Assembly: GCA_963790205.1 (NCBI GenBank)
Contig: CAWBNQ010000003.1
Span: 576,001-640,000 of the forward strand
Reading direction: 5' to 3'
Length of the DNA: 64,000 nt
Origin: Nitrospirota bacterium
Lineage (GTDB): Bacteria; Nitrospirota; UBA9217
Under the pieces are notes generated by a model. It ran no database searches and was not told where the DNA came from. It saw nothing but the letters and a program-made list of their open reading frames with translations. A program made the translations under genes and the position numbers. Below are positions 18,530 to 40,285 of the stretch, piece by piece. Positions within the stretch are counted from its first letter, which is position 1; each line of letters begins with the position of its first letter.

Positions 18530-19375
18530 ATGAACACCGGCCAGTCCTGTCCCGTATCAAAACTAGAAAAATTGCTCGTAGCAACAGACCGTTCGATGTT
18601 CAGCGAGGGCGCGATAACCGCGGCGATAACCTTTGCAAAGCACTGTTCGAGCAAGCTCTATGTCATGACGGTCGTAGAAACGAATCCGGAATACGAGACC
18701 GCCGGCGCGGAGCTTCTGCAGAAGGAAACGGAAGAGGCCGCCCGCTACCTTGCAGCCCTCAAGGCGAGGGCGCTGGAAGAGATACCGTCCTGCGAGACGA
18801 TTTTTCGCCGCGGAGACAGCGCCTCTCGGCTTATTGTTGAAGAGGCGGCGCAGAAAAAAGTCGACATGATCGCGGTCGGCAGGCGCGGCCGGCACGGGCT
18901 GGAGAAGGTCCTCCTCGGCAGCGCAGCCGCGAAGATCATCGGCCACGCACCGTGCAAGGTACTGGTTGTTCCCCGGGCGGCAGGGATCGAGTTCAAGAAT
19001 ATTCTGGTCGCAACGGACGGCTCGGAGCACGCCCGCACAGCGGCCGCGGAGGCGATCGAGATCGCAAAACGCTGCGGAAGCCGGCTGACAGCTATTTCCG
19101 TGGCTCACTTGGAAGCCGAGAGGGAAAAAGCGCGGGCGAATGCCGGCGATGTCGTGCTGTCGGCGCAGCAGGCCGGTATCAATGTCGAGACGATGGCCCT
19201 TGTCGGGAAACCCCATGAGACCATAGCCGGGACCGCAAAAAGCATGGGTGTCGATTTGATCGTCATGGGCGCGTACGGGAGAACGGGACTCAAGAAACTC
19301 CTGATGGGGAGCACGACGGAAAAGGTGATCGGGCTGGCGGGCTGCGCCGTTCTGATCGCAAAGACAGCGCAATAG
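18530..19375 (+). CDS. tandem universal stress protein
   Basis: two USP domains (LVATDGS; MGAYGRTGLKKLLMGSTTEKVI). Confidence 0.9.
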   Translation: MNTGQSCPVSKLEKLLVATDRSMFSEGAITAAITFAKHCSSKLYVMTVVETNPEYETAGAELLQKETEEAARYLAALKARALEEIPSCETIFRRGDSASRLIVEEAAQKKVDMIAVGRRGRHGLEKVLLGSAAAKIIGHAPCKVLVVPRAAGIEFKNILVATDGSEHARTAAAEAIEIAKRCGSRLTAISVAHLEAEREKARANAGDVVLSAQQAGINVETMALVGKPHETIAGTAKSMGVDLIVMGAYGRTGLKKLLMGSTTEKVIGLAGCAVLIAKTAQ

Positions 19376-19383
19376 GAGCGGGC

Positions 19384-21810
19384 ATGAATTTAACATCGAA
19401 AAGTACATCCGACTATAAGGGCCTCTCCCCTGAAGAGTCGCTTCAGCGCCTGGAGACATCCAGAAATGGTCTTACGCAGTCTGAAGCGGTAAAGCGGCTC
19501 GAGACGTTCGGGTACAACGAAATTGTCGAGAAAAAGAAGAACCCTGTCCTCGAATTTCTTCTGCGCTACTGGGGACCCATGCCGTGGCTATTGGAGCTGG
19601 CCATGGCCCTGTCTTTCATATTGAGCCATTATCTTGAAGGGGTGATCATTTTTATACTCCTCACGGTCAACGCTGTCATCGGCCACATGCATTCACGCGG
19701 CTCTCAAAAAGCGGTGGAGCTTCTCAAGAAAAAGCTGGCAATCAAGGCGAAGGCCTTGCGGGACGGGAAATGGGGCATGCAAGAGTCGCGAGAGCTCGTG
19801 CCCGGAGACATTATCTCCGTCGGGCTCGGGGACATCGTGCCGGCCGACGCCAAAATCGTGAGCGGGGGGCTTTCCGTCGACGCCTCGGCCCTGACCGGGG
19901 AGTCCCTGCCTGTGGAGACACATGAATCGGACATCATTTACTCAAGCGCTGTCGTGCGGAGGGGTGCAGCGAGGTGCGTCGTGGTCAATACCGGCGCGCA
20001 CACGTACTTCGGAAAGACCGCGGAACTGGTCAACATAGCCAAGCCCAAGTCCCACCAAGAGGCTGTGATGATGGCCATGGTCAAATATATGATGTACTTT
20101 GGCATAACCGCGTTGGTTCTTGTTCTCGCCTATGGTCTGCTCGCGAATTTGCACGAACACCTCGTCACCGTGCTGACCCTGGCCGTGATTTTTCTCATGG
20201 GCGCGGTCCCCGTGGCCCTTCCGGCGGTGCTCACCATCGTCCAGGCCGTGGGTGCAATGGAGCTTGCCAAGAAGGGTGTGCTGGTGACCAGGCTCGATTC
20301 GATCGAGGATGCGGCTTCCATCGACGTTCTTTGCTTTGACAAAACAGGGACTATAACTCAGAACAGGTTGTCGGTTGCCGATGCCGTTCCGTTTTCCGGG
20401 TTCCGAAAAGAAGACGTCGTCGTCACGGCCGCGTTAGCGTCTCAAAAGGAAGGCATGGACCTCATAGACAGCGCGGTCCTTGAATATGCCAAAACCACGG
20501 GCGCAGAACTCAAGCCCTTTCATCAGCTCTCGTTTAAGCCCTTCGACCCGTCGATCAAGAGAACAGAGGCAATCGTCGAAGTTGCAGGAAGGCGCTTCAA
20601 AGCCGTGAAAGGCGCGGCCCAGGTGGTCATGTCCCTGTGCCGGGACATGGACCAAAAGACGCGAGAGAAGGCGAACGGAACGATCGAGGAGTTCTCGCGG
20701 AACGGATACCGGACGATAGCGGTCGCGCGGTCGGGAGATGATGGATTGGATGATCTCAAATTCGCGGGCTTGCTGCCCATGGCGGACCCGCCCAGGCCGG
20801 AATCAAAAAGCATGATAGAGCAGGCGAGAAAACTGGGGATCAAGCCGATAATGCTTACCGGCGACAGTATGGCCATAGCAAAAGAAATAGCCGGTCAGGT
20901 AGGGATCGGGAGCAACATTATCCGGATGGCGGACATCCAGGGCTTGAGCGAAGAGGAGCAGGTCAAAATCGTGGGAGAATCCAACGGGTTCGCTGAGATC
21001 TATCCCGAGGACAAGTACAAAGTCGTGAAGCTCCTCCAGTCGCAAGGCCACATGGTGGGAATGACCGGAGACGGGGTGAACGATGCGCCGGCGCTCAAAC
21101 AAGCGGAGATGGGAATCGCGGTCAGCAACTCGACCGATGTGGCAAAGGCGTCCGCAAGCGTGGTCCTGACCGAGCCGGGGATCGGCGTGATCATCAATGC
21201 GGTGACCATCAGCAGGCAGACCTACCAGCGGATGCTCACCTGGGTCCTCAATAAAGTCACGAAGGTCATAGAATTCGTCGGGCTGATCACCCTGAGCTTT
21301 TTCTGGCTCCACGATATCGTGCTTTCCCTCCTGGGCATGTCGCTGCTCGTGTTCGCGAACGATTTCGTGACCATGTCCCTGGCGACCGACAGGGTGACCT
21401 CTACGCCCAATCCGAACATATGGAACGTCAGGAACATTACGCTGGCGTCGCTCGTTCCCGGCATGCTCCTGGTCGTGGAAGGCCTGCTCGTGATCCTCAT
21501 GGGGAAAAACTATTTTCATCTTGCATGGGAACAGCTGCGCACCCTGGTCATGCTGAACCTGATATTCAACAGCCAGTTCAGGGTATTGATCGTGCGGGAG
21601 AGGCGGCACTTCTGGTCGTCCTTGCCGGGCAGGGAATTGCTGCTCCTGAGCACGGCGACCATCATCGGATTTGCGCTCCTGGGCGTGTACGGCATCTTTG
21701 TCCCGTCCCTCGCTCCCTCCCAGGTCCTCGCGGTGCTGGGGTTCTCAATAGTCTTTACGCTCGGCATAGACTTTCCCAAATACTATTTGTTCAGGAGGTT
21801 CGGATTATGA
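19384..21810 (+). CDS. plasma-membrane proton-efflux P-type ATPase (P3A)
   Basis: TGES, PVALP, DKTGT and GDGVNDAPALKQA motifs; WGPMPW typical of P3A. Confidence 0.88.
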   Translation: MNLTSKSTSDYKGLSPEESLQRLETSRNGLTQSEAVKRLETFGYNEIVEKKKNPVLEFLLRYWGPMPWLLELAMALSFILSHYLEGVIIFILLTVNAVIGHMHSRGSQKAVELLKKKLAIKAKALRDGKWGMQESRELVPGDIISVGLGDIVPADAKIVSGGLSVDASALTGESLPVETHESDIIYSSAVVRRGAARCVVVNTGAHTYFGKTAELVNIAKPKSHQEAVMMAMVKYMMYFGITALVLVLAYGLLANLHEHLVTVLTLAVIFLMGAVPVALPAVLTIVQAVGAMELAKKGVLVTRLDSIEDAASIDVLCFDKTGTITQNRLSVADAVPFSGFRKEDVVVTAALASQKEGMDLIDSAVLEYAKTTGAELKPFHQLSFKPFDPSIKRTEAIVEVAGRRFKAVKGAAQVVMSLCRDMDQKTREKANGTIEEFSRNGYRTIAVARSGDDGLDDLKFAGLLPMADPPRPESKSMIEQARKLGIKPIMLTGDSMAIAKEIAGQVGIGSNIIRMADIQGLSEEEQVKIVGESNGFAEIYPEDKYKVVKLLQSQGHMVGMTGDGVNDAPALKQAEMGIAVSNSTDVAKASASVVLTEPGIGVIINAVTISRQTYQRMLTWVLNKVTKVIEFVGLITLSFFWLHDIVLSLLGMSLLVFANDFVTMSLATDRVTSTPNPNIWNVRNITLASLVPGMLLVVEGLLVILMGKNYFHLAWEQLRTLVMLNLIFNSQFRVLIVRERRHFWSSLPGRELLLLSTATIIGFALLGVYGIFVPSLAPSQVLAVLGFSIVFTLGIDFPKYYLFRRFGL

Positions 21811-25453: not shown

Positions 25454-25951
25454 ATGGGAAAGAGACAGTTGTTGTTCGTCACTTACGGCGATGAGAACCT
25501 CGAGGAAGGGGTCTCGTACGCTATCGAGCTTGCGAAGGCGATGTACGAGGATATCACGCTGCTGCTTGTCCAGAAGAAGAACAATCTCATGGAGAAGCTT
25601 GGCAATCTGATGACGGCCGTGAGCTTTGCCGAGGCGGATGACCATGAAACGGCGCGGCAGATCATGGCCGGCGGCTCTCAGGACGGGCACGAGAGATTGG
25701 AGAGGAAGCTCGCAGAACTCGCGGAGCGCTGCAAACGGGAAGGGGTCCAGGTTAACGTGCAGCATACGGGCCTGGACGCTGTAGCGGGCATCCGGACGTT
25801 TCTCCGGGAGCACACGGGGATTGACAAAGTCGTTCTGAGCCCGGTGGTGACTGAGGCGGGCAATGTTACCGCCAAGGACCTGAACCGGCTCGTGCGCACG
25901 GCGTCCCGGCCGATCGTGACCATGACCCGGCAGGCCTGTGTTGTCGGGTAA
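25454..25951 (+). CDS. USP-like hypothetical protein
   Basis: AAGGAGG RBS; LLFVT...GVSYAIELAK degenerate USP fold. Confidence 0.65.
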   Translation: MGKRQLLFVTYGDENLEEGVSYAIELAKAMYEDITLLLVQKKNNLMEKLGNLMTAVSFAEADDHETARQIMAGGSQDGHERLERKLAELAERCKREGVQVNVQHTGLDAVAGIRTFLREHTGIDKVVLSPVVTEAGNVTAKDLNRLVRTASRPIVTMTRQACVVG

Positions 25952-26080
25952 TTGTAAACAAAAACTTTTTCACCGCAGAGAACGCAGGGAACCGTTTATT
26001 TTTGTTTTACCTCAGACGTCCTCCGCGAGCTTTGCAATAAACTAAAAGCGTCAAATAAACCATACGAAAAGGAGCATGCG

Positions 26081-27007
26081 ATGTACCTGTATCTACCTGT
26101 AGCATTGACCAGCATCAACATCTTGATCCCTGTGGGGCTTGGGCTTGCCGTGGGCCTGCTGTCCGGCCTCTTCGGCGTGGGCGGCGGATTCCTGATGACC
26201 CCGCTCCTCATCATGTTCGGCATTCCCTCGACCGTTGCAGCAGCGACCGATTCGAACCAGATTGTGGCGGCCTCGACCTCCGGGACCTATGCGCACTGGA
26301 AGGTCGGGAACGTTGATTTCAAGATGGGGCTGTACCTTCTCGTCGGCGGTTTTATCGGCGGCATAGTCGGGGTGCAGGTCATCAAGGTCCTCCATGCCAT
26401 GGGCAATGCCGATTTCGTCATCAAGATGACCTATGTGTTTATGCTCGGCATCGTCGGCGTCTACATGTTCATCGAGAGCCTCCAAAGCATGAGAAAGAAA
26501 AAGACCGCCGTGGTGGAGAAGAAAAAAGAGGAGAAAGAGTCCGCCGTGGGCAGGTTCCTCAAGTCTCTGCCGCTTCAGACGCATTTTGAAAAATCGGGCA
26601 TCACCCATTCGGTCCTGGTCCCCATAGTCCTCGGCGGGTTCGTGGGCGTGCTTGCCGCCATCATGGGCGTGGGCGGCGGGTTCCTCATGGTGCCGATCAT
26701 GGTCTACATGCTCCGGATGCCGATGCACGTGGTGGTCGGGACGAGCCTGTTCCAGATCCTGTTCACCTGCATCGAGGTAACGTTCCTCCAGGCCTATACG
26801 AACCACAGTGTGGACTTTGTCCTTGCCGTACTCCTGCTTCTGGGGTCCACGATCGGGGCGCAGGCAGGCGCGGTCATGGGAAGAAAGCTCAAGGCCGAAC
26901 AGCTCAAGATCCTCCTCGCGGGGATCGTGCTCGTGGTGACCGTGAAGATCATCTTCGAACTGACGCTCGCACCGTCATTACTTCTCTCTCAGGCAGGAGG
27001 ACACTAA
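26081..27007 (+). CDS. TauE/SafE (TSUP) family transporter
   Basis: duplicated GLFGVGGGFL / IMGVGGGFL motifs, VGTSLFQI. Confidence 0.92.
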   Translation: MYLYLPVALTSINILIPVGLGLAVGLLSGLFGVGGGFLMTPLLIMFGIPSTVAAATDSNQIVAASTSGTYAHWKVGNVDFKMGLYLLVGGFIGGIVGVQVIKVLHAMGNADFVIKMTYVFMLGIVGVYMFIESLQSMRKKKTAVVEKKKEEKESAVGRFLKSLPLQTHFEKSGITHSVLVPIVLGGFVGVLAAIMGVGGGFLMVPIMVYMLRMPMHVVVGTSLFQILFTCIEVTFLQAYTNHSVDFVLAVLLLLGSTIGAQAGAVMGRKLKAEQLKILLAGIVLVVTVKIIFELTLAPSLLLSQAGGH

Positions 27008-27843
27008 TGCATATCCATTTACATTCGCTCCTGATTCATTATGCCAGGTTTTTTGGCAGTACGCGGTTTTTAAGCACGTTGATTCTCATGTTGGTGTTTT
27101 CACTGTTCCAGTTCGCCAGCGCAAAACCGGCATCGGCAATGCTGACAGCTAAGGCGAACCATGATCACATCACCATCGATTTCTTCTATCACGGAAGCAC
27201 CGTAAGCGTAAAGGGCGAGTCTGACCCGGGCGTCGATCTCGTCATCAAGATGACCTCTCCCGAGGGGCATCAGGTCCTGAAGCAGAAAGGGAAGGTCGGA
27301 GGACTTTTGTGGATGAATGTGGGACAGCTCAAGTTCGAGCAAACGCCCAACTTCTACGCCGTGTACAGCACAAAGAAGCTCGATGAGATATTGAACAAGG
27401 AAGAGCAGGAAAATTATGTCATCGGCTACCCGGCGCTTGAAAAGCACATTACGGTAACTCCGGTAAACGGCGAAGAAGAGAAAGCTAAGTGGTTCGATGA
27501 ATTCGTCAAGTACAAGGAGGAGTCCAGGGTGTATGCAAACTCCTTCGGGAAAATAGAGACAAAGGTGAATGCCCAGGGGCAGCAGGAATATTTCATCTTG
27601 ACCGATTGGCCTTATCAGGCTGCCCCCGGCGATTATCTGGTAACGGTCTATGCAGTGAAGAAGGGGAAGGTTGTGGAACAGGCTGAGTCGAAGGTGAACG
27701 TCGAACAGGTCGGCGTGGTCAAAACACTCGCTACCATGGCTAAGAACAGCGCTGCGTTCTACGGACTTCTCTCGATCGGTATCGCGCTCGGCGCCGGCTT
27801 CGGCGTCGGCCTGGTGTTTAGGAAGGGCGGAGGTTCTCATTAA
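27007..27843 (+). CDS. TIGR02186 family membrane-anchored protein
   Basis: ITIDFFYHGS and KGKVGGLLWMN motifs, C-terminal TM helix; TAATG-coupled to TauE gene. Confidence 0.8.
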   Translation: MHIHLHSLLIHYARFFGSTRFLSTLILMLVFSLFQFASAKPASAMLTAKANHDHITIDFFYHGSTVSVKGESDPGVDLVIKMTSPEGHQVLKQKGKVGGLLWMNVGQLKFEQTPNFYAVYSTKKLDEILNKEEQENYVIGYPALEKHITVTPVNGEEEKAKWFDEFVKYKEESRVYANSFGKIETKVNAQGQQEYFILTDWPYQAAPGDYLVTVYAVKKGKVVEQAESKVNVEQVGVVKTLATMAKNSAAFYGLLSIGIALGAGFGVGLVFRKGGGSH

Positions 27844-27845
27844 GC

Positions 27846-28709
27846 ATGTATAAATCAATTATCGTTGGATACGACGAGTCGCTTTCGAGCAAGGCCGCGC
27901 TCAAGGAAGCGTCGCTCCGGATAAAGCGGCAGGGCGGTACGCTGGTCCTCGTCCATGCGGTGTATTTCGATCAGGAGGAGTTCGCGATCTTGCCGTCACA
28001 GATGGAAAAGCGTTTTGAATTCGGTACCCACGTGTGTCTCCAGGCGAAAAAAGACCTTCATGATGAATTCGGGTTGAACGGCAGCGTCGAGTCGTTTGTA
28101 TGCGAGGGCGAGCCGCCCGATGTTATCGTTGAAACGGCCCAGGGAAAGAAGGCCGATCTCATCGCCCTCGGCACCTACGGCAGGAAGGGACTCAAGCGCC
28201 TGCTAATGGGCAGCGTGACGTCGCAGGTCATTTTGAACTCGCCCTGTGATGTTCTAGTGGTCAAAAATCCCTGCGAGAAGTGCGCAGGCGCCTATGGATC
28301 GCTCCTCGTTCCATTCGACGGGTCGGACACCAGCAAAAAAGCGCTGGTCCGGGCCTGCGAGTTGTCAAAAAGCGACGGCTCGGAGATTTCGGTCCTGTAT
28401 GTGATCCCGCGCTATGAGGAAATGATGGATTTTTTCAAGACTGAAACCATCAAGAAGAGCCTCTATCAGGAAGCGGAAAAGATCGCAGAAGGGGCCAAAA
28501 AAATCGCGGCCGCGCAGGGGACGCAAATCAAGGCAGTTGTTCAGGAAGGCCATGCGGGCGAGAAGATCGTGGAGATTGCTGACAAGCTCAAGAACGACCT
28601 GATCGTCATGGGGACCCACGGCTGGCGGGGCATGGACAAAGCGATCCTGGGAAGCACGACGGAGCGGATTATTGCGTACGCATCGTGTCCCATATTGATT
28701 GTCAGATAA
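27846..28709 (+). CDS. tandem universal stress protein
   Basis: two USP domains with GTYGRKGLKRLLMGS and GTHGWRG...LGST. Confidence 0.9.
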   Translation: MYKSIIVGYDESLSSKAALKEASLRIKRQGGTLVLVHAVYFDQEEFAILPSQMEKRFEFGTHVCLQAKKDLHDEFGLNGSVESFVCEGEPPDVIVETAQGKKADLIALGTYGRKGLKRLLMGSVTSQVILNSPCDVLVVKNPCEKCAGAYGSLLVPFDGSDTSKKALVRACELSKSDGSEISVLYVIPRYEEMMDFFKTETIKKSLYQEAEKIAEGAKKIAAAQGTQIKAVVQEGHAGEKIVEIADKLKNDLIVMGTHGWRGMDKAILGSTTERIIAYASCPILIVR

Positions 28710-28808
28710 CAAAATTAACCACAGAGGATGCGGGAGGCCGGGGAAAGGCGCTTACTTGTTTGATTTATCGTCTGTGGTGAAGATATTCTTTATGAGGAGT
28801 GCAGCGAT

Positions 28809-29231
28809 ATGAAAGGCTATAGAAAAGTATTGATCGCGCTAAACGGCTCAAAGGAAGTTCTGCAGCAGGGCATCAGGCTTGCCCGGGACGAGAAGACCTG
28901 GATCACCGTGGTAAAGGTCGTTCGGCCGTTCGACGGAGAGCTGAACCTCACGGGCATAAAAAACCTGAACGACGTGCTCGATGACGGCGGAACCGCGGCC
29001 GTCAGGGAAATCAACAAGACCGCCGAATACGAGGGCGCCCTGGTGAAGACCAGGCTGGAGCAGGGCGACGTGCCGCAGCGGATCGTGGAGGTCGCGGAAG
29101 AGGAAAAGTGCGATCTCATCATCATGGGCTCGAAAAAGAAAAAGGGCATCCTGAGCAGGCTCTTCGGCGACCACGTGGTGGAAAAGGTCATCGACCGCGC
29201 CCCGTGCCCGGTGTTCGTCGTCGGGATATAA
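28809..29231 (+). CDS. universal stress protein
   Basis: CDLIIMGS...[12 protein letters not shown]. Confidence 0.88.
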
Positions 29232-29269: not shown

Positions 29270-29455
29270 ATGGAAGGGTTATTTCAGCCTTTGCATCTGA
29301 TCGTTATTCTATTCATTGTATTGATCATCTTCGGCCCGGGTAAGCTCCCGGAGTTCGGAGAAGGCCTTGGGAAGAGCATCAAGGCCTTTAAGAAGGCCCT
29401 GAGAGAGGGACAGGATTCATCGGTGATAGAGCACAAGGAAGAGAAAAAATCCTGA
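29270..29455 (+). CDS. tatA: twin-arginine translocase TatA/TatE subunit
   Basis: TM helix plus [30 protein letters not shown]. Confidence 0.9.
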
Positions 29456-29744: not shown

Positions 29745-31394
29745 ATGTCAGACGCTATTCAACTGAAAAAAAAGTTTAATCGGCTAGTAAGAAGAGGAAT
29801 TCTGACCGATGGTGAATTAGAGGGCGCTGTAAAAGAATCAAAAACCTCTGGTAAATATCCTGAGGATTGGTTCATAGAAATAGGCGTGCCCAAGCACGAG
29901 ATCCTTTTCTGCCTGTCCGAACACTACGGGCTACCCTTCGTAGAATATGATGAAAGCGTTATTGCCGCTTATCTCCTGATCATCCGTTTGGACATGGAGA
30001 AACTGAAACAGGCTCTCTGGTTTCCGCGATCGGTCAGTCAGGACCGGGCCGAAGTGATCGCATACCGCCCCGACGATCCCCAGGTAGTCGGCGATATAAA
30101 AAAGACCTTGGGCGTTCACCATATCGATTTTATTGTTGCCCTTCCTGCTGACATCGTCCGCATCATCGAGCACAATTTTGACGTTAATCCCTCGTTTTCC
30201 TTCTCAGGGGGAAGAACGCCCCTTGCGCGAGTGAGGACTTATTTCGCTTACCGGCGGTCGACCTATGCTCATTATAGGACGTTATATGCCAAGGGAAGGA
30301 CCGGCCTTGCGTTTATCAGGACCGGTGTTTCCTTCATCGTTATTGCGCTTTTGTTCCTGAGAGTGTTTGGCATAGGAGCTTTGACCGTCATGGAGGCGCC
30401 GCTCCTTATCGTCGGCGTTATCATGCTCTATGACGGGCTTAAATGGTATTTCCCTGCGCGAAGAATAGCGAAAAAACCGATCATTTCCACGTGCACCGAG
30501 CCTTCCTGGGGAGCCTGCGTGCTGGAGGAGTCGATGTCCGAAAAAGGGGCCCCTATTTTCAACCGCGGCGGCATGGTCAAGGGCGCAGAAGCGCTCCGGG
30601 CGGGGTGGGAGTATCTTTCTCCGGTCATGCGGCGCAGGTTTCTTGCTTCCGACAGAACGGACATGGCAGAGGAACGGACCGCTCTGGCGGGCCACAGGAC
30701 CAAACTGGCGCGTGCCCGGACAGGGCTTGCCTTTACGCGGACGGGAATTGCCTTCATCGGCCTGGGCGTTGGTTTGTTCCGGCAATTTCACGCCAGCAAG
30801 TGGACGCTTCTCGACCTATCGCTCGTCGTTACAGGGCTGTTGATGTCTGCGGAAGGTTTCTACTGGTATTTGGCCGGAAGACGGTCCGGCATAGAAAGCT
30901 TTAAATCTGTGATCAACGCGGTTAATAAAGAAAGCATCTGGGACAGGGTATTCCCGCTCCGGCATAACCGTCAACAGGACAAGGCCGGTCCCCCGGTTCG
31001 CGCTTCTCATTTGCCGGGCATATGGGCCACTACCGGGCTCGCTCTCGAACGGACCGTTCTCGCGGACCGGCGATGCGTGATGGCCAGGCTGCGCTCGGTT
31101 ATGGCAGTCACGCGGACAGGCCTGGCATTTGTCCGGACGGGCATGAGTATTACTTCTGTTGGCGCGGGTCTCATGGTGTACTTCGGCACGGCATCGGCAG
31201 GCTGGACGCTCTTTAATGCGGTGATGATCTTCACCGGCCTTGCGTTGATTGCCGATGGGTACTATTGGATCGTTCCGACCGAAAAAATGAGAGCGCAATA
31301 CCCCTATTGTTACGGTGATATGGAGATAACCCTTCCCGATTACGGCGTACCGACGAACAAATGGGGAACGGTTTTTTTTAGTCAGTATGAATAA
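29745..31394 (+). CDS. GspE/MshE N-terminal-like domain fused to three DUF202 (YidH/Vtc1-like) units
   Basis: N-terminal LVRRGILTDGELEGA...LSEHYGLPFVEYD; three Arg-heptad runs, each ending RTGLAFxRTG followed by a TM hairpin. Confidence 0.75.
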   Translation: MSDAIQLKKKFNRLVRRGILTDGELEGAVKESKTSGKYPEDWFIEIGVPKHEILFCLSEHYGLPFVEYDESVIAAYLLIIRLDMEKLKQALWFPRSVSQDRAEVIAYRPDDPQVVGDIKKTLGVHHIDFIVALPADIVRIIEHNFDVNPSFSFSGGRTPLARVRTYFAYRRSTYAHYRTLYAKGRTGLAFIRTGVSFIVIALLFLRVFGIGALTVMEAPLLIVGVIMLYDGLKWYFPARRIAKKPIISTCTEPSWGACVLEESMSEKGAPIFNRGGMVKGAEALRAGWEYLSPVMRRRFLASDRTDMAEERTALAGHRTKLARARTGLAFTRTGIAFIGLGVGLFRQFHASKWTLLDLSLVVTGLLMSAEGFYWYLAGRRSGIESFKSVINAVNKESIWDRVFPLRHNRQQDKAGPPVRASHLPGIWATTGLALERTVLADRRCVMARLRSVMAVTRTGLAFVRTGMSITSVGAGLMVYFGTASAGWTLFNAVMIFTGLALIADGYYWIVPTEKMRAQYPYCYGDMEITLPDYGVPTNKWGTVFFSQYE

Positions 31395-32637
31395 TGAACT
31401 TTTGAACATGAATAATAAAGATCTGACCAATGCCCACGTGCGGAGAGGCCCGGAGTTATCCTTCCTCGTTGAGCGCGGGTTTTTAGACCGACAAGCGCTT
31501 GAGGAGGCGTCATTCGTCGCCCGGGCGCGGGGGATTGACCTCGAGAAGCTTCTGCTTGCGGAATACGGCGTGCCCAAGCTCCGGCTGCTTGAGGCCCTTG
31601 CCGCGTATTATCAATGCTCATTCATTGAATATGATGAACGTCTCCCCATCCCGTCCGAGCTTCTGACCGGTCTCAGCGCTGATGCGCTTTCAACGAACCA
31701 ATGGATGCCCGTCATCAAAGAAAGCACCGGCACGGTGGTCATCGCGGCGAGAAACCCTGATAGCCCCGCCATGAGGGAAGATGTAAAAAAATACGTAAAG
31801 GCCGAGCGATATGAGTTCCGGGTCACCCTTGATTTCGATATACAGTGGTTTATTCAGGATTATCTTCATGCCAAGCCGGGTTTATTGATAGGTACGGAAC
31901 GGACGGGACTCGCGTACTGGCGCAATACCATGGCCCATTGGAGGACGAGGCTCGCCTGTTACCGGACCGACCTCGCGAGCGCCCGGACCGGTCTTGCCTT
32001 CCTGAGATGGGGCTTAGGCACGATTGCGCTCTCCAATACCCTGCTTCAGACAAAAAACGTGAGCAATTCCCCCTCCCTGTATTTCTCGGTGCTGGCCGTC
32101 GGGATCGTCATTTCCTTTTACGGTCTTCCCACCTATCTGAATGTGCGGAAATCCCGAATGACGCCCCCCGGCCACCAGACGCTGGTGGAGGTTACGGCGG
32201 CCACCATTCAATTCCTCGAAAATTATCATTTTCTGGAAAACACCGGGATTGAACGCCAAACACAGGGCACGATGCTCGCCAGGATGGGAGATTATCTATC
32301 AGACCACAGCACGTATCTTTATCCGTCTCCCTCGAGCAAAGTGCGCACCGTGTTCGCCCGTGAACGAAATGTCCTGGCGGCCCAACGGACGATAGCGGCG
32401 TGTTACCGCACGATCTATGCTCGTGCGAGGACCGGGCTTGCCTTTATCCGCACCGGAATTTCCTTCTTGAGCATAGGGGTGGGCATTATCAGCTATTTCG
32501 GTTTTGGCTGGCTTACGTCGTTCAATCTCTGGCTTATTGCCGCGGGGCTTTTGATGGTGATAGACGGGGCACTGTGGTACTGGCCCGTGCGGAAGGAACA
32601 GGCTGAGATCCCGAGAGGGATTGCCTATCCGGAGTGA
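31387..32637 (+). CDS. GspE/MshE N-terminal-like domain fused to two DUF202 units
   Basis: LVERGFLDRQALEEA...YQCSFIEYDE; two RTGLAFxR(T/W)G plus TM hairpin units; 8-bp overlap with upstream paralog. Confidence 0.75.
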   Translation: MNNELLNMNNKDLTNAHVRRGPELSFLVERGFLDRQALEEASFVARARGIDLEKLLLAEYGVPKLRLLEALAAYYQCSFIEYDERLPIPSELLTGLSADALSTNQWMPVIKESTGTVVIAARNPDSPAMREDVKKYVKAERYEFRVTLDFDIQWFIQDYLHAKPGLLIGTERTGLAYWRNTMAHWRTRLACYRTDLASARTGLAFLRWGLGTIALSNTLLQTKNVSNSPSLYFSVLAVGIVISFYGLPTYLNVRKSRMTPPGHQTLVEVTAATIQFLENYHFLENTGIERQTQGTMLARMGDYLSDHSTYLYPSPSSKVRTVFARERNVLAAQRTIAACYRTIYARARTGLAFIRTGISFLSIGVGIISYFGFGWLTSFNLWLIAAGLLMVIDGALWYWPVRKEQAEIPRGIAYPE

Positions 32638-32697
32638 CCGGCGGGACACGAGTGTGCCGGCGGTATCGGCATCGAGTTTTCATAAGTAGGGGCACTA

Positions 32698-33129
32698 ATG
32701 CATATCCATATACATTCACTCATATATTATGCCAGACAAGCCAGACTGCTGGGCAGTAGTATGCGTTTCCTCGGTGCGATGCTGCTCATGCTGTTGCTCG
32801 GCCTGCTCCAGCTTGTCAGCGCCAGACCGGCATCGTCCCTGCTCACGGCAAAGGAGGACCACCGTGCCACCATCGATTTTTTCTGTCACGTCAGCGCGGT
32901 GAACATACTCGGGACGTTTGACCCGGCCATGGATCCGAGATTCTGCGGGCAGGATCGAACGGATCCGGGCCCTCCGGATGCAATGAATGAGAACACGTAT
33001 GCAAGCGTTTTCCATCGGCTCAAGCCGGGAATCGTCCTCGTTCCACGGATGAACCGGACCCCGAAACCGAAAAGCGTGTATCGGTTTTTTGCAAGGGCGC
33101 CCGGCACCGGGAATTGTTGTGAAGTGTGA
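32698..33129 (+). pseudogene. truncated diverged duplicate of the TIGR02186 gene 5' end
   Basis: MHIHIHSLIYYAR...ARPASSLLTAKEDH.ATIDFFCH aligns with the N-terminus of the 27007 ORF; same CACTAATGCATATCCAT junction. Confidence 0.7.
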
Positions 33130-33194
33130 TACTTGAGTAGTTTCATTAAATGGTTTATAATATTAGTATATTTAAGAGAGGAGATGTTGCTATT

Positions 33195-34709
33195 ATGAAG
33201 AAGTTTTTGCAGTTTCCCCATCCGTTTTTTTCCGCACGCCCAACGTGGAAGTGGTTTATTTTGATCAACGTTCTTATCGGCGCGACCATGTCGGCCTTGG
33301 ACGTCAGCATTGTCAACGTTGCCATGCCGACCCTGAAGAGTGAGTTCGGGGTTTCCATGTCCCTTATCGAGTGGGTGGCAATGTCGTACATGCTCACGTT
33401 GACCATTTTTCTTCCCTTTTTCGGAAGACTCGCCGACATGTTCGGCAGGTCCAGGCTCTACAATGCCGGTTTTGTCGTGTTCACCGTAGGGTCGCTGTTC
33501 TGCGGCATGTCGACGTCCGCTGTGATGCTCATTGCCGCACGCGTCATCCAGGCAGTCGGCGCAGGGCTCCTGCAGGCGAACTCCGTTGCGCTGATCACGC
33601 AGGCCTTCCCGGGGAACGAGCGGGGCAAGGCCATCGGCATACAGGGCGCTGTCCAGGCGATTGCCATGGCCGTTGGTCCTTTCGTAGGAGGCGTGTTGAT
33701 CGCCACGATCGGCTGGCGTTCCGTGTTTTATATCAATATTCCGATCGGCATTGTCGGCACGATCGCTGCCTTGTATATTCTGCCGCCCAATGAAAAATCG
33801 GGGAAAAAGGAGTCAATCGACTACCTCGGCACGGTGTTTTTCGCTTCGGGTCTTGCATTTCTCGTCCTGGCGTTCAATGAAGTAGTCAATCTTGGATGGG
33901 GTTCGATGACCATCATGGTTTACTTCTTTAATGCCTGTATCCTGCTCGGCTTGTTCGTGCTTACGGAACTCCGTGTCAAGCATCCGTTGATCGATTTGAA
34001 ACTGTTCAAGAACAGCACGTTCCTGATCGGCAACCTGACCGGCATGATGTCCTATTATGTACTTTTTGCCGTCCTGTTCCTGATGCCGTTTTACCTTGAG
34101 AAGGTGCTCAACTACAGCCCTGCGCTTACGGGCAGCCTGCTCACCCCTATTCCTCTCGCCATGGCGATCGTTGCGCCCTTCTCTGGCCATATTTCTGACA
34201 AGTACGGTGCGAGGATCATGACGGCGAGCGGGATGTTCGTGGCCGCGCTCGCCTGTTTTTCCCTCATGTTCCTGGGAGCTCAGGCACACCTGCCGCTGCT
34301 GATCGGTGAACTAATACTGCTGGGCATCGGCATGGGCATGTTCACTCCGCCGAACAACAGCGCAATCATGGGATCCGCTCCCAGAGAAAAACTCGGGCTG
34401 GCCGGCGGCGTTTTGAATATGATGAGGTCCCTTGGCCTGATCTTCGGTGTGGACATCTCCGGCTTGATCTTCACCAAACTGGAACACAGATATCTTGCTG
34501 ATAAGGGGTATGGGGATGTTCGGCACGTCTTCAGCAACAACGCCATCCCGCTTGACATGAAAGACCACGCTTTTATGAGGGGCTTTATCGTTGTGATGGG
34601 CGTGCTTTTGGTCCTGAATGTGGTTGCCGCAGTGCTTTCAACCGCCAAGAAGGAAGCCAAGGTGGACGCCGAAGCAGCGGAGGCAGCCAAAGAATTCGCG
34701 GAAGTCTAG
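33195..34709 (+). CDS. DHA2 family MFS efflux transporter
   Basis: about 14 TM; SALDVSIVNVAMP, GRLADMFGR and WRSVFYINIPIG motifs. Confidence 0.9.
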   Translation: MKKFLQFPHPFFSARPTWKWFILINVLIGATMSALDVSIVNVAMPTLKSEFGVSMSLIEWVAMSYMLTLTIFLPFFGRLADMFGRSRLYNAGFVVFTVGSLFCGMSTSAVMLIAARVIQAVGAGLLQANSVALITQAFPGNERGKAIGIQGAVQAIAMAVGPFVGGVLIATIGWRSVFYINIPIGIVGTIAALYILPPNEKSGKKESIDYLGTVFFASGLAFLVLAFNEVVNLGWGSMTIMVYFFNACILLGLFVLTELRVKHPLIDLKLFKNSTFLIGNLTGMMSYYVLFAVLFLMPFYLEKVLNYSPALTGSLLTPIPLAMAIVAPFSGHISDKYGARIMTASGMFVAALACFSLMFLGAQAHLPLLIGELILLGIGMGMFTPPNNSAIMGSAPREKLGLAGGVLNMMRSLGLIFGVDISGLIFTKLEHRYLADKGYGDVRHVFSNNAIPLDMKDHAFMRGFIVVMGVLLVLNVVAAVLSTAKKEAKVDAEAAEAAKEFAEV

Positions 34710-34847: not shown

Positions 34848-35381
34848 ATGAAATGCTCAACGGTACAGATTTCTGCGTCTTGTATCAGTCAACTCGATGA
34901 CAGCCGGATTGCGGTTACCGTCCCTAAAGAGGATATTCGGCGGATCAAGTTGGCCTATGATCCGGAATCACGCCACCCCTTTCTGCGGTTTCTCGCCGGC
35001 TTCGGTCTGGTCGTCGCCGGTCTCATTATGATCATTGCGGATTACATCATAGTGGAAGTTGGCATATTCCGCATTCATATAGCATCCCATACGTTCAGCA
35101 TTCCTGTCGCCACGATAAGCCTGTGGCTCGGGGTCGGCGCAGGTTTGTGGATCTTGATCGGGGTCTTTCGGGGCAGATACAATCTGTTGATCAACACCGG
35201 ACAGGGATTCCGCAAAATATTCTTTGCGGCGTCGACTGATATCAGGGAAATCCAACGCTTCGTCGGGAGAGCGAACCGGGAATTGGGATATGACATTGAT
35301 ATGTCCATTATGGACACCATGTATATAGCACCTGCCCCCGCTGACGATCGAACAGACAGTAAATCCCCTGACGTAATCTGA
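34848..35381 (+). CDS. hypothetical membrane protein (2 TM)
   Basis: ORF with two hydrophobic segments. Confidence 0.55.
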   Translation: MKCSTVQISASCISQLDDSRIAVTVPKEDIRRIKLAYDPESRHPFLRFLAGFGLVVAGLIMIIADYIIVEVGIFRIHIASHTFSIPVATISLWLGVGAGLWILIGVFRGRYNLLINTGQGFRKIFFAASTDIREIQRFVGRANRELGYDIDMSIMDTMYIAPAPADDRTDSKSPDVI

Positions 35382-35573: not shown

Positions 35574-36971
35574 ATGAAGATAGAACGCAAACTCATACTC
35601 TCGAACATCATCAACGGCGCCTTCATCATCCTGATCGGCTTTTTCGCCTTTCAGAACCTGAACCTCGTGCTGACCAAGCTCAGGTTCGTGGAGATCGCAG
35701 ACGACCTGAACGCCTCCTTTCTCGAGATGAGGCTTTCGGAAAAGAACTATTTTCTCTACAAGGACAAACAGGCCCTCGTTCAGATCCAAAGCAATCTCGA
35801 GAAGACCATGGAAACCATCGAGGGCGTGCGCGGCGACATCACACGGGCCATCGGAGAAACGGACCTCAAGGACCTCGTTGCGCACCTTCAGGCTTATGCA
35901 GCGGTCGTGGAAGAGGCCCGGACCGGCAGCCCCGCTGACGCGAAACTGGAGGCGCAGCTCAGGGCCGAAGGGAAGGGACTGAAGGAATTTTCCGATTCCA
36001 TCACGCACCTGGAGCGGAAACGCGTCAACGATATCATCCTGAGCTCGAAATGGATCCTGATCTTTTCCTTCTGGGTCATTCTGGCTTCCGCGCTCTTTAT
36101 CGGGCACTTTATCTCTCAGAAGATACTCAGGTCTCTGCGGGAGATCGAGAAGCTGACCAAGTCCATCGCGGAGGGAAATTTCCACCGGATAGAGGGCTTT
36201 CGGTCGAACGATGAGCTCGGCGCCGTCATCACGGCGATCAACTCCATGTCCGAGGAACTGGGTCTTCGCGAGGAGGAGCTCATCCAGTCCAAAAAGCTCG
36301 CCTCCCTCGGCATTCTTACCGCGGGCGTGGCACATGAGCTCACCAATCCCCTCAATAATATTTCCATGATCGCCCAGACCTATGCGGAACTGTACCGGAA
36401 CCTCGGCGAGCAGGACCGGATAGAGTTCATGCAGAAGGTCGAGGGGGAGACGGAGCGGATCCGGCAGATCGTCAAGAACCTGCTGGACTTTTCCAAGCCG
36501 AAAGACGCACAGCCGGTGGAGGCGGATATCAACGCCGTTATCCAGAAGACGCTCACCCTCGTCCAGAACATGATCGACGTATCGAACATCGAGACCACGG
36601 TGCATCTGGGCGACGGGCTGCCGCACGTTTTCATCGATGAGCACCAGATGCAGCAGGTGCTGGTGAACCTCGTAACGAACGCCGTCCAGGCCACGGCAGC
36701 CGGAGGCAGGATCGTCATCTCGTCGAGGCCGGGGAAGAACAACGGATCCGTCGAGATCAGCGTGGCGGACACGGGTAAGGGCATCCCGCCCGAGTTTTTG
36801 CCCCATATCTTCGATCCCTTTTTCAGCACCAAGGGCGACGGGGGAACGGGCCTCGGACTTTCCGTAAGCTACGGCATCATTAAGAACCATCACGGCGAGA
36901 TCAGGGTTGAGAGCAAGGTGGGGGTGGGGACGACCTTCACCATCCAACTGCCGCGCCATGTTATTAAGTAA
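35574..36971 (+). CDS. HAMP-domain sensor histidine kinase (NtrB-like)
   Basis: GVAHELTNPL H-box; N, G1, F and G2 boxes (DTGKGI, FDPFFSTK, GTGLGL). Confidence 0.93.
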   Translation: MKIERKLILSNIINGAFIILIGFFAFQNLNLVLTKLRFVEIADDLNASFLEMRLSEKNYFLYKDKQALVQIQSNLEKTMETIEGVRGDITRAIGETDLKDLVAHLQAYAAVVEEARTGSPADAKLEAQLRAEGKGLKEFSDSITHLERKRVNDIILSSKWILIFSFWVILASALFIGHFISQKILRSLREIEKLTKSIAEGNFHRIEGFRSNDELGAVITAINSMSEELGLREEELIQSKKLASLGILTAGVAHELTNPLNNISMIAQTYAELYRNLGEQDRIEFMQKVEGETERIRQIVKNLLDFSKPKDAQPVEADINAVIQKTLTLVQNMIDVSNIETTVHLGDGLPHVFIDEHQMQQVLVNLVTNAVQATAAGGRIVISSRPGKNNGSVEISVADTGKGIPPEFLPHIFDPFFSTKGDGGTGLGLSVSYGIIKNHHGEIRVESKVGVGTTFTIQLPRHVIK

Positions 36972-37179: not shown

Positions 37180-37551
37180 ATGGCAACGAGCAGGATCATG
37201 GTAATAGACGACGAAAAGATCGTGGGCGACATGGCGAAGCTGTCGCTCGAGCAGGACGGCTACGCAGTCGAGACCTTTCTGAACGCCGAGCCTGCGCTCA
37301 AGCGGCTGCAGGAGGAACAGTTCGACGTCGTGGTGACCGACTACAAGATGAAGGGCATCGATGGGATGGAGGTGTTGAAGACCGTCAAAGAGCATTATCC
37401 GAAGACCCAGGTCATCATGATCACAGCCTTCGCCAACCTCGACGCCGCCATCGAGGCGCTCCGGCGGGACGTGCACGACTTTTTCCCCAAGCCGGTCAAG
37501 ATTAAGGAACTGAAGGCGTCCATCAAGCGGGCGCTGGAAAAACAGGCGTGA
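37180..37551 (+). CDS. single-domain response regulator
   Basis: VIDDE, VVTDYKM, ITAF and KP receiver motifs; AAGGAG RBS. Confidence 0.92.
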   Translation: MATSRIMVIDDEKIVGDMAKLSLEQDGYAVETFLNAEPALKRLQEEQFDVVVTDYKMKGIDGMEVLKTVKEHYPKTQVIMITAFANLDAAIEALRRDVHDFFPKPVKIKELKASIKRALEKQA

Positions 37552-37711: not shown

Positions 37712-40285
37712 ATGAAGCGATTAGCCGCAAAAATTCGTTCACTGCTCCGGGTCATCGCGCTCCGGCGCCGCAACCGGGGGTCCTTCGAGCGGCTGTTCAA
37801 CGGCTTCCGCGATGTGCTGGACCGGAACAACCGGTCACTTGAGATCATCACGGACATGGGCGATACGCTGGGCGGGGACTACCTGTTCGACATCCAGTAC
37901 GTCAGGCGCTCCTATGCCGAGCTGTACGCGGCCATGGACGGATCACTCACCAGTTTCAACAATCTCACGCAGAACAGATACCCGAAACTCCATGACGTAT
38001 TCTCGGCCATAGACGGCCAGATCAGACGCATGATCGACGAGTCCACGCCGGTGTCCGACGCGCTCATCATGTTCTACGAGGAGGTCACCGCAGACATGGC
38101 AGTGGCCGTCGGGGGCAAGAACGGCAATCTCGCCGAGATAAGGAATACCGTAAAGCTCAACGTCCCGGACGGCTACGCCGTAACAACCCGGGCCTTCGAC
38201 GTTTTCCTCCGTCACAACCATATTCTGGAAAAGATACAGCTGCCTGATGACAACGCTCCTGTTTCCGATGCGATGATCCACGAAATGCGAGAACTGGTCC
38301 TGCACGGGACCATGCCTCCCGAACTCAGCCGGGCCATGGAGAAGGCCGTCAAGAGGATCAAATCCCGATGCGGCGCGGACTGCACCCTGGCCGTACGGAG
38401 CAGCGCCGGCGAGGAAGACGGGGACTTTTCTTTTGCCGGACAGTTTGAAACAATCCTGAACGTTCCCGCTGATCCGGCGGCAATCGGGAAGGCGTACCGG
38501 AAGGTGGTCGCGAGCCTCTTTTCCGAAAAAGCGCGGGCCTATCAATCGCGGCTGGGCCTTGATGTCCGGGGCATGAAAATGGCCGTGGCCTGCGTGGTGA
38601 TGGTGGACGCAGCGGCGAGCGGGGTACTGTACTCGGTTGATCCCCAGGGAAACCGCGAGACCATGGTCATCAACGCCGCCTGGGGACTGGGAACGGCGAT
38701 TGCCGAGGGGCAGACGGACGCCGATTTTTACCGGATAAAGAAAACCGGCCCCCTTGAAATCGTCGAAACGCGGACAGGCGCAAAGGACACCATGGTCGTA
38801 TCACGCTCGAGCGGCGGGGTGGCGTCCGTTGCGACCCCCGAGCAAAAGAAAAAAGAGCCGAGCCTTACGCGGGCTCAGGCCCAGGAGCTAGCCCGGATGG
38901 CGCTCCTGCTTGAGAAGCATTTCAAGAGGCCGCAGGACATCGAGTGGGCGATAGACCAGAAAGGGAAAATCTTCATCCTCCAGTCTCGGCCGCTCAGGAT
39001 GCACGAGGACAACGCGGGTGATACAACCGCGGCCCCCGCGATGCCTGATGCGAAGGTCATTGCCAGGAACAGGGGCGTCGTCGTGCAGAAAGGCGCGGCA
39101 GCGGGCCGGGCCTTTATTCTGAAAAACGATCGCGATCTTGATTCAATCCCGCGCGGGGCCATCCTCGTTGCGCACCGTGACTCGTCCCATTTTGTCCGTG
39201 TGATGACGACGGTATCCGCGATCATCACGGACATTGGAACGCCCACGAGCCATATGGCGGCCCTGTGCCGGGAATTCAGGATCCCCACTGCCGTGAACGC
39301 CGGCAACGCGACGCAAATGCTCAGCCAGGGGCAGGAGGTCACCGTCCAGGTCGAGAGCGACGGCGCAACATTCTACGACGGGCTGATCAGGCAGATCGTG
39401 GATCAGGCGGAGAATGACTCTGCGAAGATGGAGGACCTCTTCGAGTTCCGCAGGAAACGGTATCTTCTTCGCTACATTGCGCCGTTGAACCTCGTCGATC
39501 CCTTGAAGAACGAGTTTACGCCGCAAGCCTGCAGGACCATGCACGATATCCTGCGTTTCATCCATGAGAAGTCCGTTGCCGAGTTGATCGAAAACGCCGA
39601 GAAGGTCAGGACCGGCGCTGTTAAACTGGACCTGCCGATCCCCGCAGGGATCATGCTCATCGATATCGGCGGGGGACTGGACAACCCGGAAGGGCGGGGC
39701 CATGTTGCGCCGGAACAGGTAACCTCATTACCGCTCCGGGCGATCATTACCGGAATGACCAGGCCCGGGGTCTGGCGCTCCGACGCGGTGCCGCTCAGGG
39801 TCAATGACTTTATGGCGAGCATGTTGCGTGTGCCGGACATCACCACCGACGCGGGCGGCCGCGTGGAGCAGAACATGGCGGTTATCTCGCGGGAATACGC
39901 GAACATCAACCTCAAGTTCGGCTACCATTTCATCATCCTGGACTGCTTTTGCAGCGAGAACACGAGGAACAACCACATCTATTTCCGCTTCGCCGGCGGC
40001 GCCACGGACATGACCAAGCGGTCCCGGCGGCTGCAGCTCATCGCCGCGATCCTCGAAGAGTACGGGTTCAACATCAAGACCAAAGGGGACTTGATCGTGG
40101 CCCGGCTGGCGAACATCCGGCAGCAGGAAGCAGAGGACCTCCTCGACCATATCGGCAGGCTCTTTTCCTACACCCGGCAGCTCGATGCCGTGCTCAACGA
40201 TGACCTCTCGGTCGAACGCTACGCGCGTTGCTTCCTTGAAGGGAATTACGAACTGGCAGCGTCCGGGGAGAGTTCTAAAAAATAG
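37712..40285 (+). CDS. PEP-utilising enzyme (PEP synthase-like ATP-grasp plus phospho-His swivel domain, non-canonical C-terminus)
   Basis: VGGKNGNL, AVRSSAGEEDG..SFAGQF, PQDIEWA and TSHMAALCRE motifs. Confidence 0.85.
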   Translation: MKRLAAKIRSLLRVIALRRRNRGSFERLFNGFRDVLDRNNRSLEIITDMGDTLGGDYLFDIQYVRRSYAELYAAMDGSLTSFNNLTQNRYPKLHDVFSAIDGQIRRMIDESTPVSDALIMFYEEVTADMAVAVGGKNGNLAEIRNTVKLNVPDGYAVTTRAFDVFLRHNHILEKIQLPDDNAPVSDAMIHEMRELVLHGTMPPELSRAMEKAVKRIKSRCGADCTLAVRSSAGEEDGDFSFAGQFETILNVPADPAAIGKAYRKVVASLFSEKARAYQSRLGLDVRGMKMAVACVVMVDAAASGVLYSVDPQGNRETMVINAAWGLGTAIAEGQTDADFYRIKKTGPLEIVETRTGAKDTMVVSRSSGGVASVATPEQKKKEPSLTRAQAQELARMALLLEKHFKRPQDIEWAIDQKGKIFILQSRPLRMHEDNAGDTTAAPAMPDAKVIARNRGVVVQKGAAAGRAFILKNDRDLDSIPRGAILVAHRDSSHFVRVMTTVSAIITDIGTPTSHMAALCREFRIPTAVNAGNATQMLSQGQEVTVQVESDGATFYDGLIRQIVDQAENDSAKMEDLFEFRRKRYLLRYIAPLNLVDPLKNEFTPQACRTMHDILRFIHEKSVAELIENAEKVRTGAVKLDLPIPAGIMLIDIGGGLDNPEGRGHVAPEQVTSLPLRAIITGMTRPGVWRSDAVPLRVNDFMASMLRVPDITTDAGGRVEQNMAVISREYANINLKFGYHFIILDCFCSENTRNNHIYFRFAGGATDMTKRSRRLQLIAAILEEYGFNIKTKGDLIVARLANIRQQEAEDLLDHIGRLFSYTRQLDAVLNDDLSVERYARCFLEGNYELAASGESSKK

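Follow-up and report, generated by a model that had tools for sequence, protein, structure and literature searches.

What might a bacterium build from five copies of the DUF202 membrane domain encoded by two overlapping genes? The question is raised by genes A and B in a stretch of 64,000 nucleotides (nt) from a Nitrospirota bacterium (GTDB lineage UBA9217; GenBank assembly GCA_963790205.1, contig CAWBNQ010000003.1, positions 576,001 to 640,000 of the forward strand), referred to here, at its full length, as the window and numbered from its first letter. To our knowledge, a role for DUF202 has been demonstrated only in the eukaryotic VTC complex, and the original prediction for this locus, made from the sequence alone, saw in A and B a candidate VTC-like channel for polyphosphate or another polyanion, under ligand control. 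The analysis presented here finds the two-gene, five-unit arrangement to be real, conserved among relatives and inherited together with a histidine kinase and a lone receiver, and it tentatively points to a conduit for small anions rather than for polyphosphate.

Two Overlapping Genes Encode Five DUF202 Units

Gene A (29745..31394; this and all features below lie on the forward strand) encodes a protein of 549 amino acids, made of an MshEN-fold domain and three DUF202 hairpin units with arginine heptads, and gene B (31387..32637), whose start overlaps the stop of A by 8 nt, encodes a protein of 416 amino acids with an MshEN-fold domain and two such units. The two proteins are paralogous (33% identity over 381 residues by BLASTP, E 1e-45; HHalign probability 100). 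In Pfam, the MshEN domain (PF05157) of each and the DUF202 stretches (PF02656), three in A and two in B, all score above the gathering threshold (for DUF202, 53.4 bits in A and 32.7 bits in B versus a cut-off of 23.4), and in a genome-wide search all five units, taken singly, exceed the DUF202 cut-off. Neither an ATPase nor a polymerase domain is found in A or B by Pfam and NCBIfam scans: TIGR02538 matches only the N-terminal part (16 bits versus a cut-off of 676), the C-terminal ATPase domain of GspE/PilB being absent. NCBIfam provides no family name for either protein, and the matches in the ESM Atlas are DUF202/MshEN clusters only, automatically named. The parts list of the original prediction thus stands: open reading frames, BLASTP, HHalign and Pfam agree on two overlapping paralogous genes with MshE-N-like domains, the three-plus-two split is seen alike in Pfam, in the per-unit matches and in structural models, and the units are indeed DUF202, with no enzymatic domain attached. 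Public contigs span A and B without insertions or deletions (one run, X1, is possibly the source of the window itself). Relative to the window, two public runs show insertions or deletions of 1-2 nt at 32682, 34755, 35417 and 37172, all outside A and B.

The units follow a single design. Unit A1 (30213..30470, residues 157-242) has arginines at 157, 164, 171, 178, 185 and 192 and runs into the transmembrane (TM) helices TM1-TM2; unit A2 (30621..30884, residues 293-380) has them at 297, 304, 311, 318, 325 and 332; unit A3 (31020..31298, residues 426-518) at 436, 443, 450, 457 and 464, with Thr429 at the first heptad; unit B1 (31894..32157, residues 170-257) at 172, 179, 186, 193, 200 and 207; and unit B2 (32332..32601, residues 316-405) at 320, 327, 334, 341, 348 and 355, all five units being drawn from both alignment and model. 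When 61 sequences of A and 61 of B are aligned, the heptad R-T-x-L-A-x-x, with arginine every 7 residues, spans offsets -28 to +7 about an RTGLAF anchor, and arginine is 98-100% conserved at 29 of the 30 heptad positions, the exception being the threonine at -28 of unit A3. AlphaFold2 (predicted local distance difference test, pLDDT, 83.8 and predicted template modelling score, pTM, 0.74 for A; 78.4 and 0.56 for B) models each unit as one unbroken helix of 51-56 residues (158-208, 293-347 and 426-480 in A, 170-221 and 316-371 in B) and one return helix.

Conservation of the Arrangement

Relatives were collected from GTDB and from metagenomes as the best-scoring 80 of 229 loci in each scan. Among 78 GTDB loci, 68 possess the three-plus-two arrangement; four encode A, a second A-like protein (A') and B, one encodes A, a split A' and B, one has B split by a frameshift, three are cut at contig ends and one consists of A at a contig end. 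The loci with A' (L073, L076, L078, L084 and L109), in which a protein of ~568 amino acids adjoins A, may represent alternative heterodimers or a different stoichiometry. Among 80 metagenome loci, 48 are complete three-plus-two pairs, six more are such pairs cut at one end, 13 show A only, most of these stopping within 140 nt of a contig end, and the remainder are truncated. Conservation of the arrangement in homologous pairs, which the original prediction had left to be checked, is thus borne out.

Across 301 genomes of the window's phylum, A is present in 51, and B adjoins it in 49 of these, the other two containing only part of A; no genome with B only is listed among the 301. Full-length A also occurs in 6 of 401 genomes of a further phylum (that of genome G301), and the unit counts of three and two are maintained across two phyla, down to ~40% identity and with reading frames overlapping. 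Relatives with taxon names are mostly Nitrospirota, some being Desulfocapsaceae or deltaproteobacteria, and since dsrA exceeds its cut-off in 42 of the 51 A-positive genomes, the hosts are mostly sulfate or sulfite reducers. The dsrA gene of the window's own genome is in two frames or pieces (G000:C14:63709-64855), and the same split is seen in G206, G239 and G242, possibly reflecting assembly errors. A fused A+B chain was not found among proteins of 729-2080 amino acids, which is weak evidence, and covariation between A and B over 137 paired rows (an effective 86 at the 80% identity level) pointed to no particular interface: the top pairs were scattered, and the inter-chain peaks reached z 8-10, versus 5-8 after shuffled pairing.

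Linkage to Two-Component Genes

The original prediction did not raise what proves to be the tightest association of A/B, that with a histidine kinase and a lone receiver, nor that with a module of TauE and phosphoenolpyruvate (PEP)-synthase-like genes. Where at least 600 nt lie beyond B (104 non-redundant loci), the next gene is a HAMP histidine kinase in 78, and in 9 more the kinase comes, as in the window, after an insertion of a major facilitator superfamily (MFS) gene or a small gene. The kinase is followed by a lone receiver in 67 of 69 loci, a PEP-synthase-like gene is then present in 54 of 64, and TauE and Alph_Pro_TM genes lie upstream in 48 of 81. In the window, these are a HAMP-HisKA kinase (35574..36971), a stand-alone receiver of 123 amino acids without an output domain (37180..37551), a PEP-synthase-like protein (37712..40285) and an upstream module (25454..29231) composed of a Usp-like gene, a TauE/SafE (TSUP) transporter (26081-27007), Alph_Pro_TM (27007-27843) and two Usp genes. 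The PEP-synthase-like protein combines PPDK_N and PEP-utilizer mobile domains, that is, an ATP-grasp and a His-swivel domain, with no recognised pyruvate-binding domain, and falls below every NCBIfam cut-off for a named family. In all 7 of the 7 distant loci, kinase and receiver genes come after B, and some of these loci have no nearby TauE or PEP-synthase-like gene.

The same linkage is seen on the scale of genomes. Among the 301, an orthologue of the kinase (sensor part at least 49% identical, the next matches being at most 39%; one is a contig-end fragment) occurs together with A in 47, A occurs alone in 4 and the kinase alone in 3, which we give as counts rather than as a test because kin are not independent. 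In three of the four genomes with A alone, the assembly is fragmented and A lies close to a contig end; the fourth has a divergent kinase directly after B. In the three genomes with the kinase alone (L248, L249 and L250, the first ending within the kinase), a second TauE gene, 66% identical to the window's TauE in the one case compared, occupies the slot of A/B before the kinase, receiver and PEP-synthase-like genes. The cluster of G039 is split, with A, B and the receiver at one site, and TauE through the kinase and the PEP-synthase-like gene at another. With A present in 47 of 50 kinase genomes versus 48 of 85 Alph_Pro_TM genomes, the strongest linkage of A/B is to one histidine kinase and its lone receiver, shared by 47 of the 51 A-positive genomes.

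The neighbours of A/B are of the same kinds as those making up the TauE (TSUP)/TIGR02186/Usp/kinase-receiver/PEP-synthase-like modules of sulfate reducers, to which A/B are an added component, found in part of the Nitrospirota and in the six genomes of the other phylum. The Desulfovibrio genes DVU0145-0152 we take to be TauE, TIGR02186 and PEP-synthase-like; this cluster has been described as unannotated and transport-related, and as up-regulated in syntrophy. A literature search on TIGR02186 gave no match, and the substrates of TSUP transporters in these organisms are not established (PMC5840216).

Single-Unit Relatives

In a family of related proteins (L228-L240; P0180, P0191-P0193 and P0212), a single DUF202 hairpin is preceded by 9-25 RT heptads, a length of up to ~26 nm if fully helical. 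Some are nearly perfect tandem repeats, and if these proteins are pentameric they would form long arginine-lined tubes. Of 13 single-unit loci, three stand directly before a kinase and receiver, among them L237 and L239, which are bare three-gene units; five are found in a TauE/PEP-synthase-like cluster, behind a cytidine monophosphate (CMP)-kinase-like gene; one, fused to a receiver, precedes a PEP-synthase-like gene; two follow a CMP-kinase-like gene only; and two have no neighbour from the module. The receiver fusion is a family of its own, 86 of the 120 relatives listed for P0180 (the query counted) covering at least 87% of it at 48-100% identity, and the receiver of P0180 is 47% identical to the lone receiver of the window. 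In a tree of 46 kinases (18 sampled from A/B loci, plus the window's and the distant ones; midpoint root only), the 26 kinases found after A/B group together with the 3 found after single units, with support of 100/99, versus 17 others. It seems likely, then, that an older homo-oligomer of the same signalling module gave rise to A/B as a specialised form with two chains. Another protein, P0363 (DUF202, half a receiver and part of PPDK_N), looks like a deletion chimera and was given no weight as evidence of fusion.

Comparison with VTC and YidH

The yeast VTC channel (Vtc1 in three copies, Vtc3 and Vtc4; PDB 7YTJ, 8I6V and 9UMG) assembles as a pentamer of 3:1:1 composition and has 15 membrane helices, of which the five TM1 helices line a pore where K24 and R31 form rings and M42 a hydrophobic constriction (PMC9911596; bioRxiv 10.1101/2023.01.27.525886). 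What it has in common with A/B is the DUF202 module in five copies, with basic residues 7 apart at the positions of K24 and R31. This register was derived through a separate DUF202 gene of the same genome, for a canonical three-helix YidH-type protein (L192, G000:C8:246800-247054), which can be aligned with Vtc1 around the ANERTFL motif (E 0.5); when the five units are aligned to it, their offsets -7 and 0 correspond to K24 and R31, and all five have arginine there, 98-100% conserved. The likeness of the basic helices to the pore helices of VTC, as originally proposed, is thereby upheld at the level of register. In a search of the PDB with a unit profile (containing two YidH-type rows), Vtc1 accounts for four of five matches, at E 0.18 at best; these matches are weak yet consistent with the Pfam assignment. 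In fold searches with the models of A and B, no VTC chain is among the matches listed, and the membrane parts match generic helical bundles.

The differences are as clear. A/B have two chains versus the five of VTC, two helices per unit versus three, five or six arginines per unit versus two rings, with the ladder reaching ~3 heptads further into the cytoplasm, and small residues at the position of the Met42 gate. They lack the polymerase and SPX domains of VTC; what they have instead are MshEN domains and genetic linkage to a two-component system, and the TTM polymerase domain (PF09359) is found neither in A or B nor elsewhere in the genome (G000). We do not count A/B among the members of the VTC family. 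Bacterial YidH, a single DUF202 protein, shares with the units the TM1 register R..ERT.LA..RT and the glycine of TM2, but it is short, consists of one unit, has a third helix, which is hydrophobic, and lacks the extended arginine ladder. The function of YidH is unsettled: the Escherichia coli protein passed a screen for D-alanine export, internal D-alanine not being lowered (PMC10299036), and a yidH mutant is sensitive to peroxide (PMC4054840).

The MshEN Domains and the Polyphosphate Question

The ligand control of the original prediction, by cyclic diguanylate (c-di-GMP), finds no support because the motif residues are missing in both proteins. The MshEN fold itself is complete in A (29757..30185, residues 5-147; 5htl at Z 14.1, root-mean-square deviation 3.2, 138 residues aligned) and in B (31441..31866, residues 19-160; Z 14.5, 3.9, 139 aligned), with both subdomains, as in the N-terminal domains of MshE, PilF, PilB and XpsE, but in A/B it lacks the c-di-GMP motifs and is fused to membrane hairpins instead of an ATPase. 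Two copies of the motif RLGxx(L/V/I)2xxG(L/V/I)2xxxxLxxxLxxQ are expected (PMC5013675). In the alignments, RLG is replaced by KKF and YPE in A and by PEL and DLE in B, a degeneracy already noted in the original prediction; the glycine position of motif 2 is glutamate at 93-100%, and the terminal glutamine is replaced by S/Y in A and A/Y in B, so that R, G and Q of the motif are absent from all four copies. The PilB protein of Xanthomonas presents a MshEN fold without the motif that serves to bind PilZ (PMC8389850), and the MshEN domains of A/B are probably protein docking sites as well. The closest relatives of these domains in the phylum of G301 are PilB/GspE-type ATPases of ~770 amino acids with an extra N-terminal region (L217-L225 and L227; L220 was checked).

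The proposed cargo fares little better, as ordinary polyphosphate is an unlikely one where its enzymes are so scarce. The VTC polymerase exceeds its cut-off in 1 of the 301 genomes of the phylum and in none of the 51 A-positive ones (28 of them at least 90% complete), one of which has a sub-threshold match; PPK1 is present in 2 of the 51 and PPK2 in none, and the genome of the window (98% complete) gives no match to any of the three, with controls for these searches giving the expected outcome. A scan of 29 representatives of the commonest clusters of neighbouring genes, drawn from 158 loci, recognised no polyphosphate enzyme.

Possible Function and Its Alternatives

The explanation that we favour, tentatively and at somewhat less than an even chance, is that A and B form an arginine-lined, pseudo-pentameric anion conduit with ten membrane helices, gated by the two-component system. 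A and B would likely pair 1:1, their five DUF202 helices making one pseudo-five-fold tube across the inner membrane, with the arginines, by homology to VTC, probably facing the lumen, and with a cytoplasmic barrel that may be ~3 heptads (~30 Å) longer than that of VTC. The kinase would sense a periplasmic ligand and then phosphorylate the lone receiver, which would dock on A/B, presumably at the MshEN domains, and gate passage. The conduit would likely pass small anions rather than polyphosphate, the cargo perhaps being the anion of the TauE/PEP-synthase-like module, either an oxyanion of sulfur or a small metabolite, phosphorylated or carboxylate.

Several observations weigh against this explanation. 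No unit has a third membrane helix in the alignments or AlphaFold2 models, and at the level of Met42 (offset +11) the five units have S/A/S/G/S, not the hydrophobic gate of VTC, so the geometry of VTC may not transfer. Conserved Asp/Glu residues (D303, E309, E310, E435 and E326) stand beside several arginines and could neutralise them, which would suit a purely structural coiled coil. No kinase is found downstream of B in 17 of the 104 loci, and the replacement of A/B by TauE is seen in three genomes of two families only. Three metagenome loci (L125, L155 and L170) have 217-411 nt after A and no start of B (L141, with 345 nt, was left out), in the record P0124 the A protein has two units, and a third paralogue accompanies a single B in 5 of the 78 GTDB loci, with A' split in one, which makes other stoichiometries possible. 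The loci also lean to close relatives, because the best-scoring ones were used.

Of the alternatives, a non-conducting co-sensor, whose arginine barrel would bind a cytoplasmic or membrane-passing anion and alter the activity of the adjacent kinase, is unlikely in our view but deserves serious attention. Transporters act as co-sensors for some two-component systems, the linkage of A/B to the kinase is tighter than that to the transporter module, L237 and L239 consist of nothing besides the single-unit gene, kinase and receiver, and 9-25 heptads exceed the need of a pore. However, a receiver that lacks an output domain, and that is either joined to the DUF202 protein in one chain or kept with it, fits A/B as a target rather than an input, and the predicted lumen is lined with small residues across the membrane. 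That A and B form no 1:1 pentamer at all, but larger or separate oligomers, the total of five being a frozen gene arrangement, seems to us rather improbable. The loci with A' would agree with it, as would the alignment of B with A1-A2, short of the third unit only, as a simple duplication would yield, and the absence of TM3, which contributes to the subunit interface of VTC (bioRxiv 10.1101/2023.01.27.525886); against this, three and two units have been kept across two phyla in overlapping frames, B is listed without A in none of the 301 genomes, and the stoichiometry of VTC, as described, is also five.

A VTC-like channel for polyphosphate or another polyanion, supplied by an enzyme outside the complex, for which the linked PEP-synthase-like protein is a candidate, would make sense of arginine rings in register with the filter of VTC, of a long basic tube that would suit a linear polyanion and of the frequent PEP-synthase-like gene, but we consider it very unlikely: the one genome with a VTC polymerase lacks A, the PPK enzymes are nearly absent, the window's own genome and the commonest neighbours offer no substitute, and PEP-synthase-like genes are also found in modules without A/B. 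There is an equally slim prospect for a true bacterial analogue of VTC, in which the dikinase-like PEP-synthase protein would make a PPK-free polyanion that is threaded through the arginine barrel of A/B and switched by the two-component system, the single-unit relatives being homopentameric arginine nanotubes whose length would tune the chain bound or passed. Least probable of all, and barely credible to us, is gating of the A/B complex by c-di-GMP bound to the MshEN domains, given that the fold is retained in full but all four motif copies have lost their key residues, with glutamate at the motif 2 glycine, and that the motif-free PilB of Xanthomonas binds a protein partner (PMC8389850).

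The domains of A and B were known before; their architecture and its two-component linkage are, judged by listings and the openings of abstracts, without description in the literature searched, which lies mostly outside the subscription journals. If A/B form the predicted pore, they would be a bacterial version of the VTC channel without the polymerase, its five units encoded as three plus two, and a pore under the control of a lone receiver would likewise be an uncommon kind of two-component output. A two-gene construct would then make testable the cargo of bacterial DUF202 proteins, the origin of the VTC channel and the role of the widespread, unexplained TauE/kinase/PEP-synthase-like module of sulfate reducers.

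Other Features of the Locus

A search of the locus against plasmids gave no match, no RNA data set containing it is listed, and a scan for promoters and terminators gave a signal no better than that of shuffled sequence. The insertion between B and the kinase, seen in close relatives only, consists of a DHA2-type MFS gene (33150-34709) and a gene for a protein of 177 amino acids (34848-35381), preceded by a decayed partial copy of the start of the Alph_Pro_TM gene (32698-33129; compare 27007). Just before A lies a single TatA-like gene (29270-29455), TatA being near A in 11 of 158 loci. Further upstream is a pair of Usp and P-type ATPase genes (18530-21810), and between 44001 and 50000 of the window the guanine plus cytosine content falls to ~45%.

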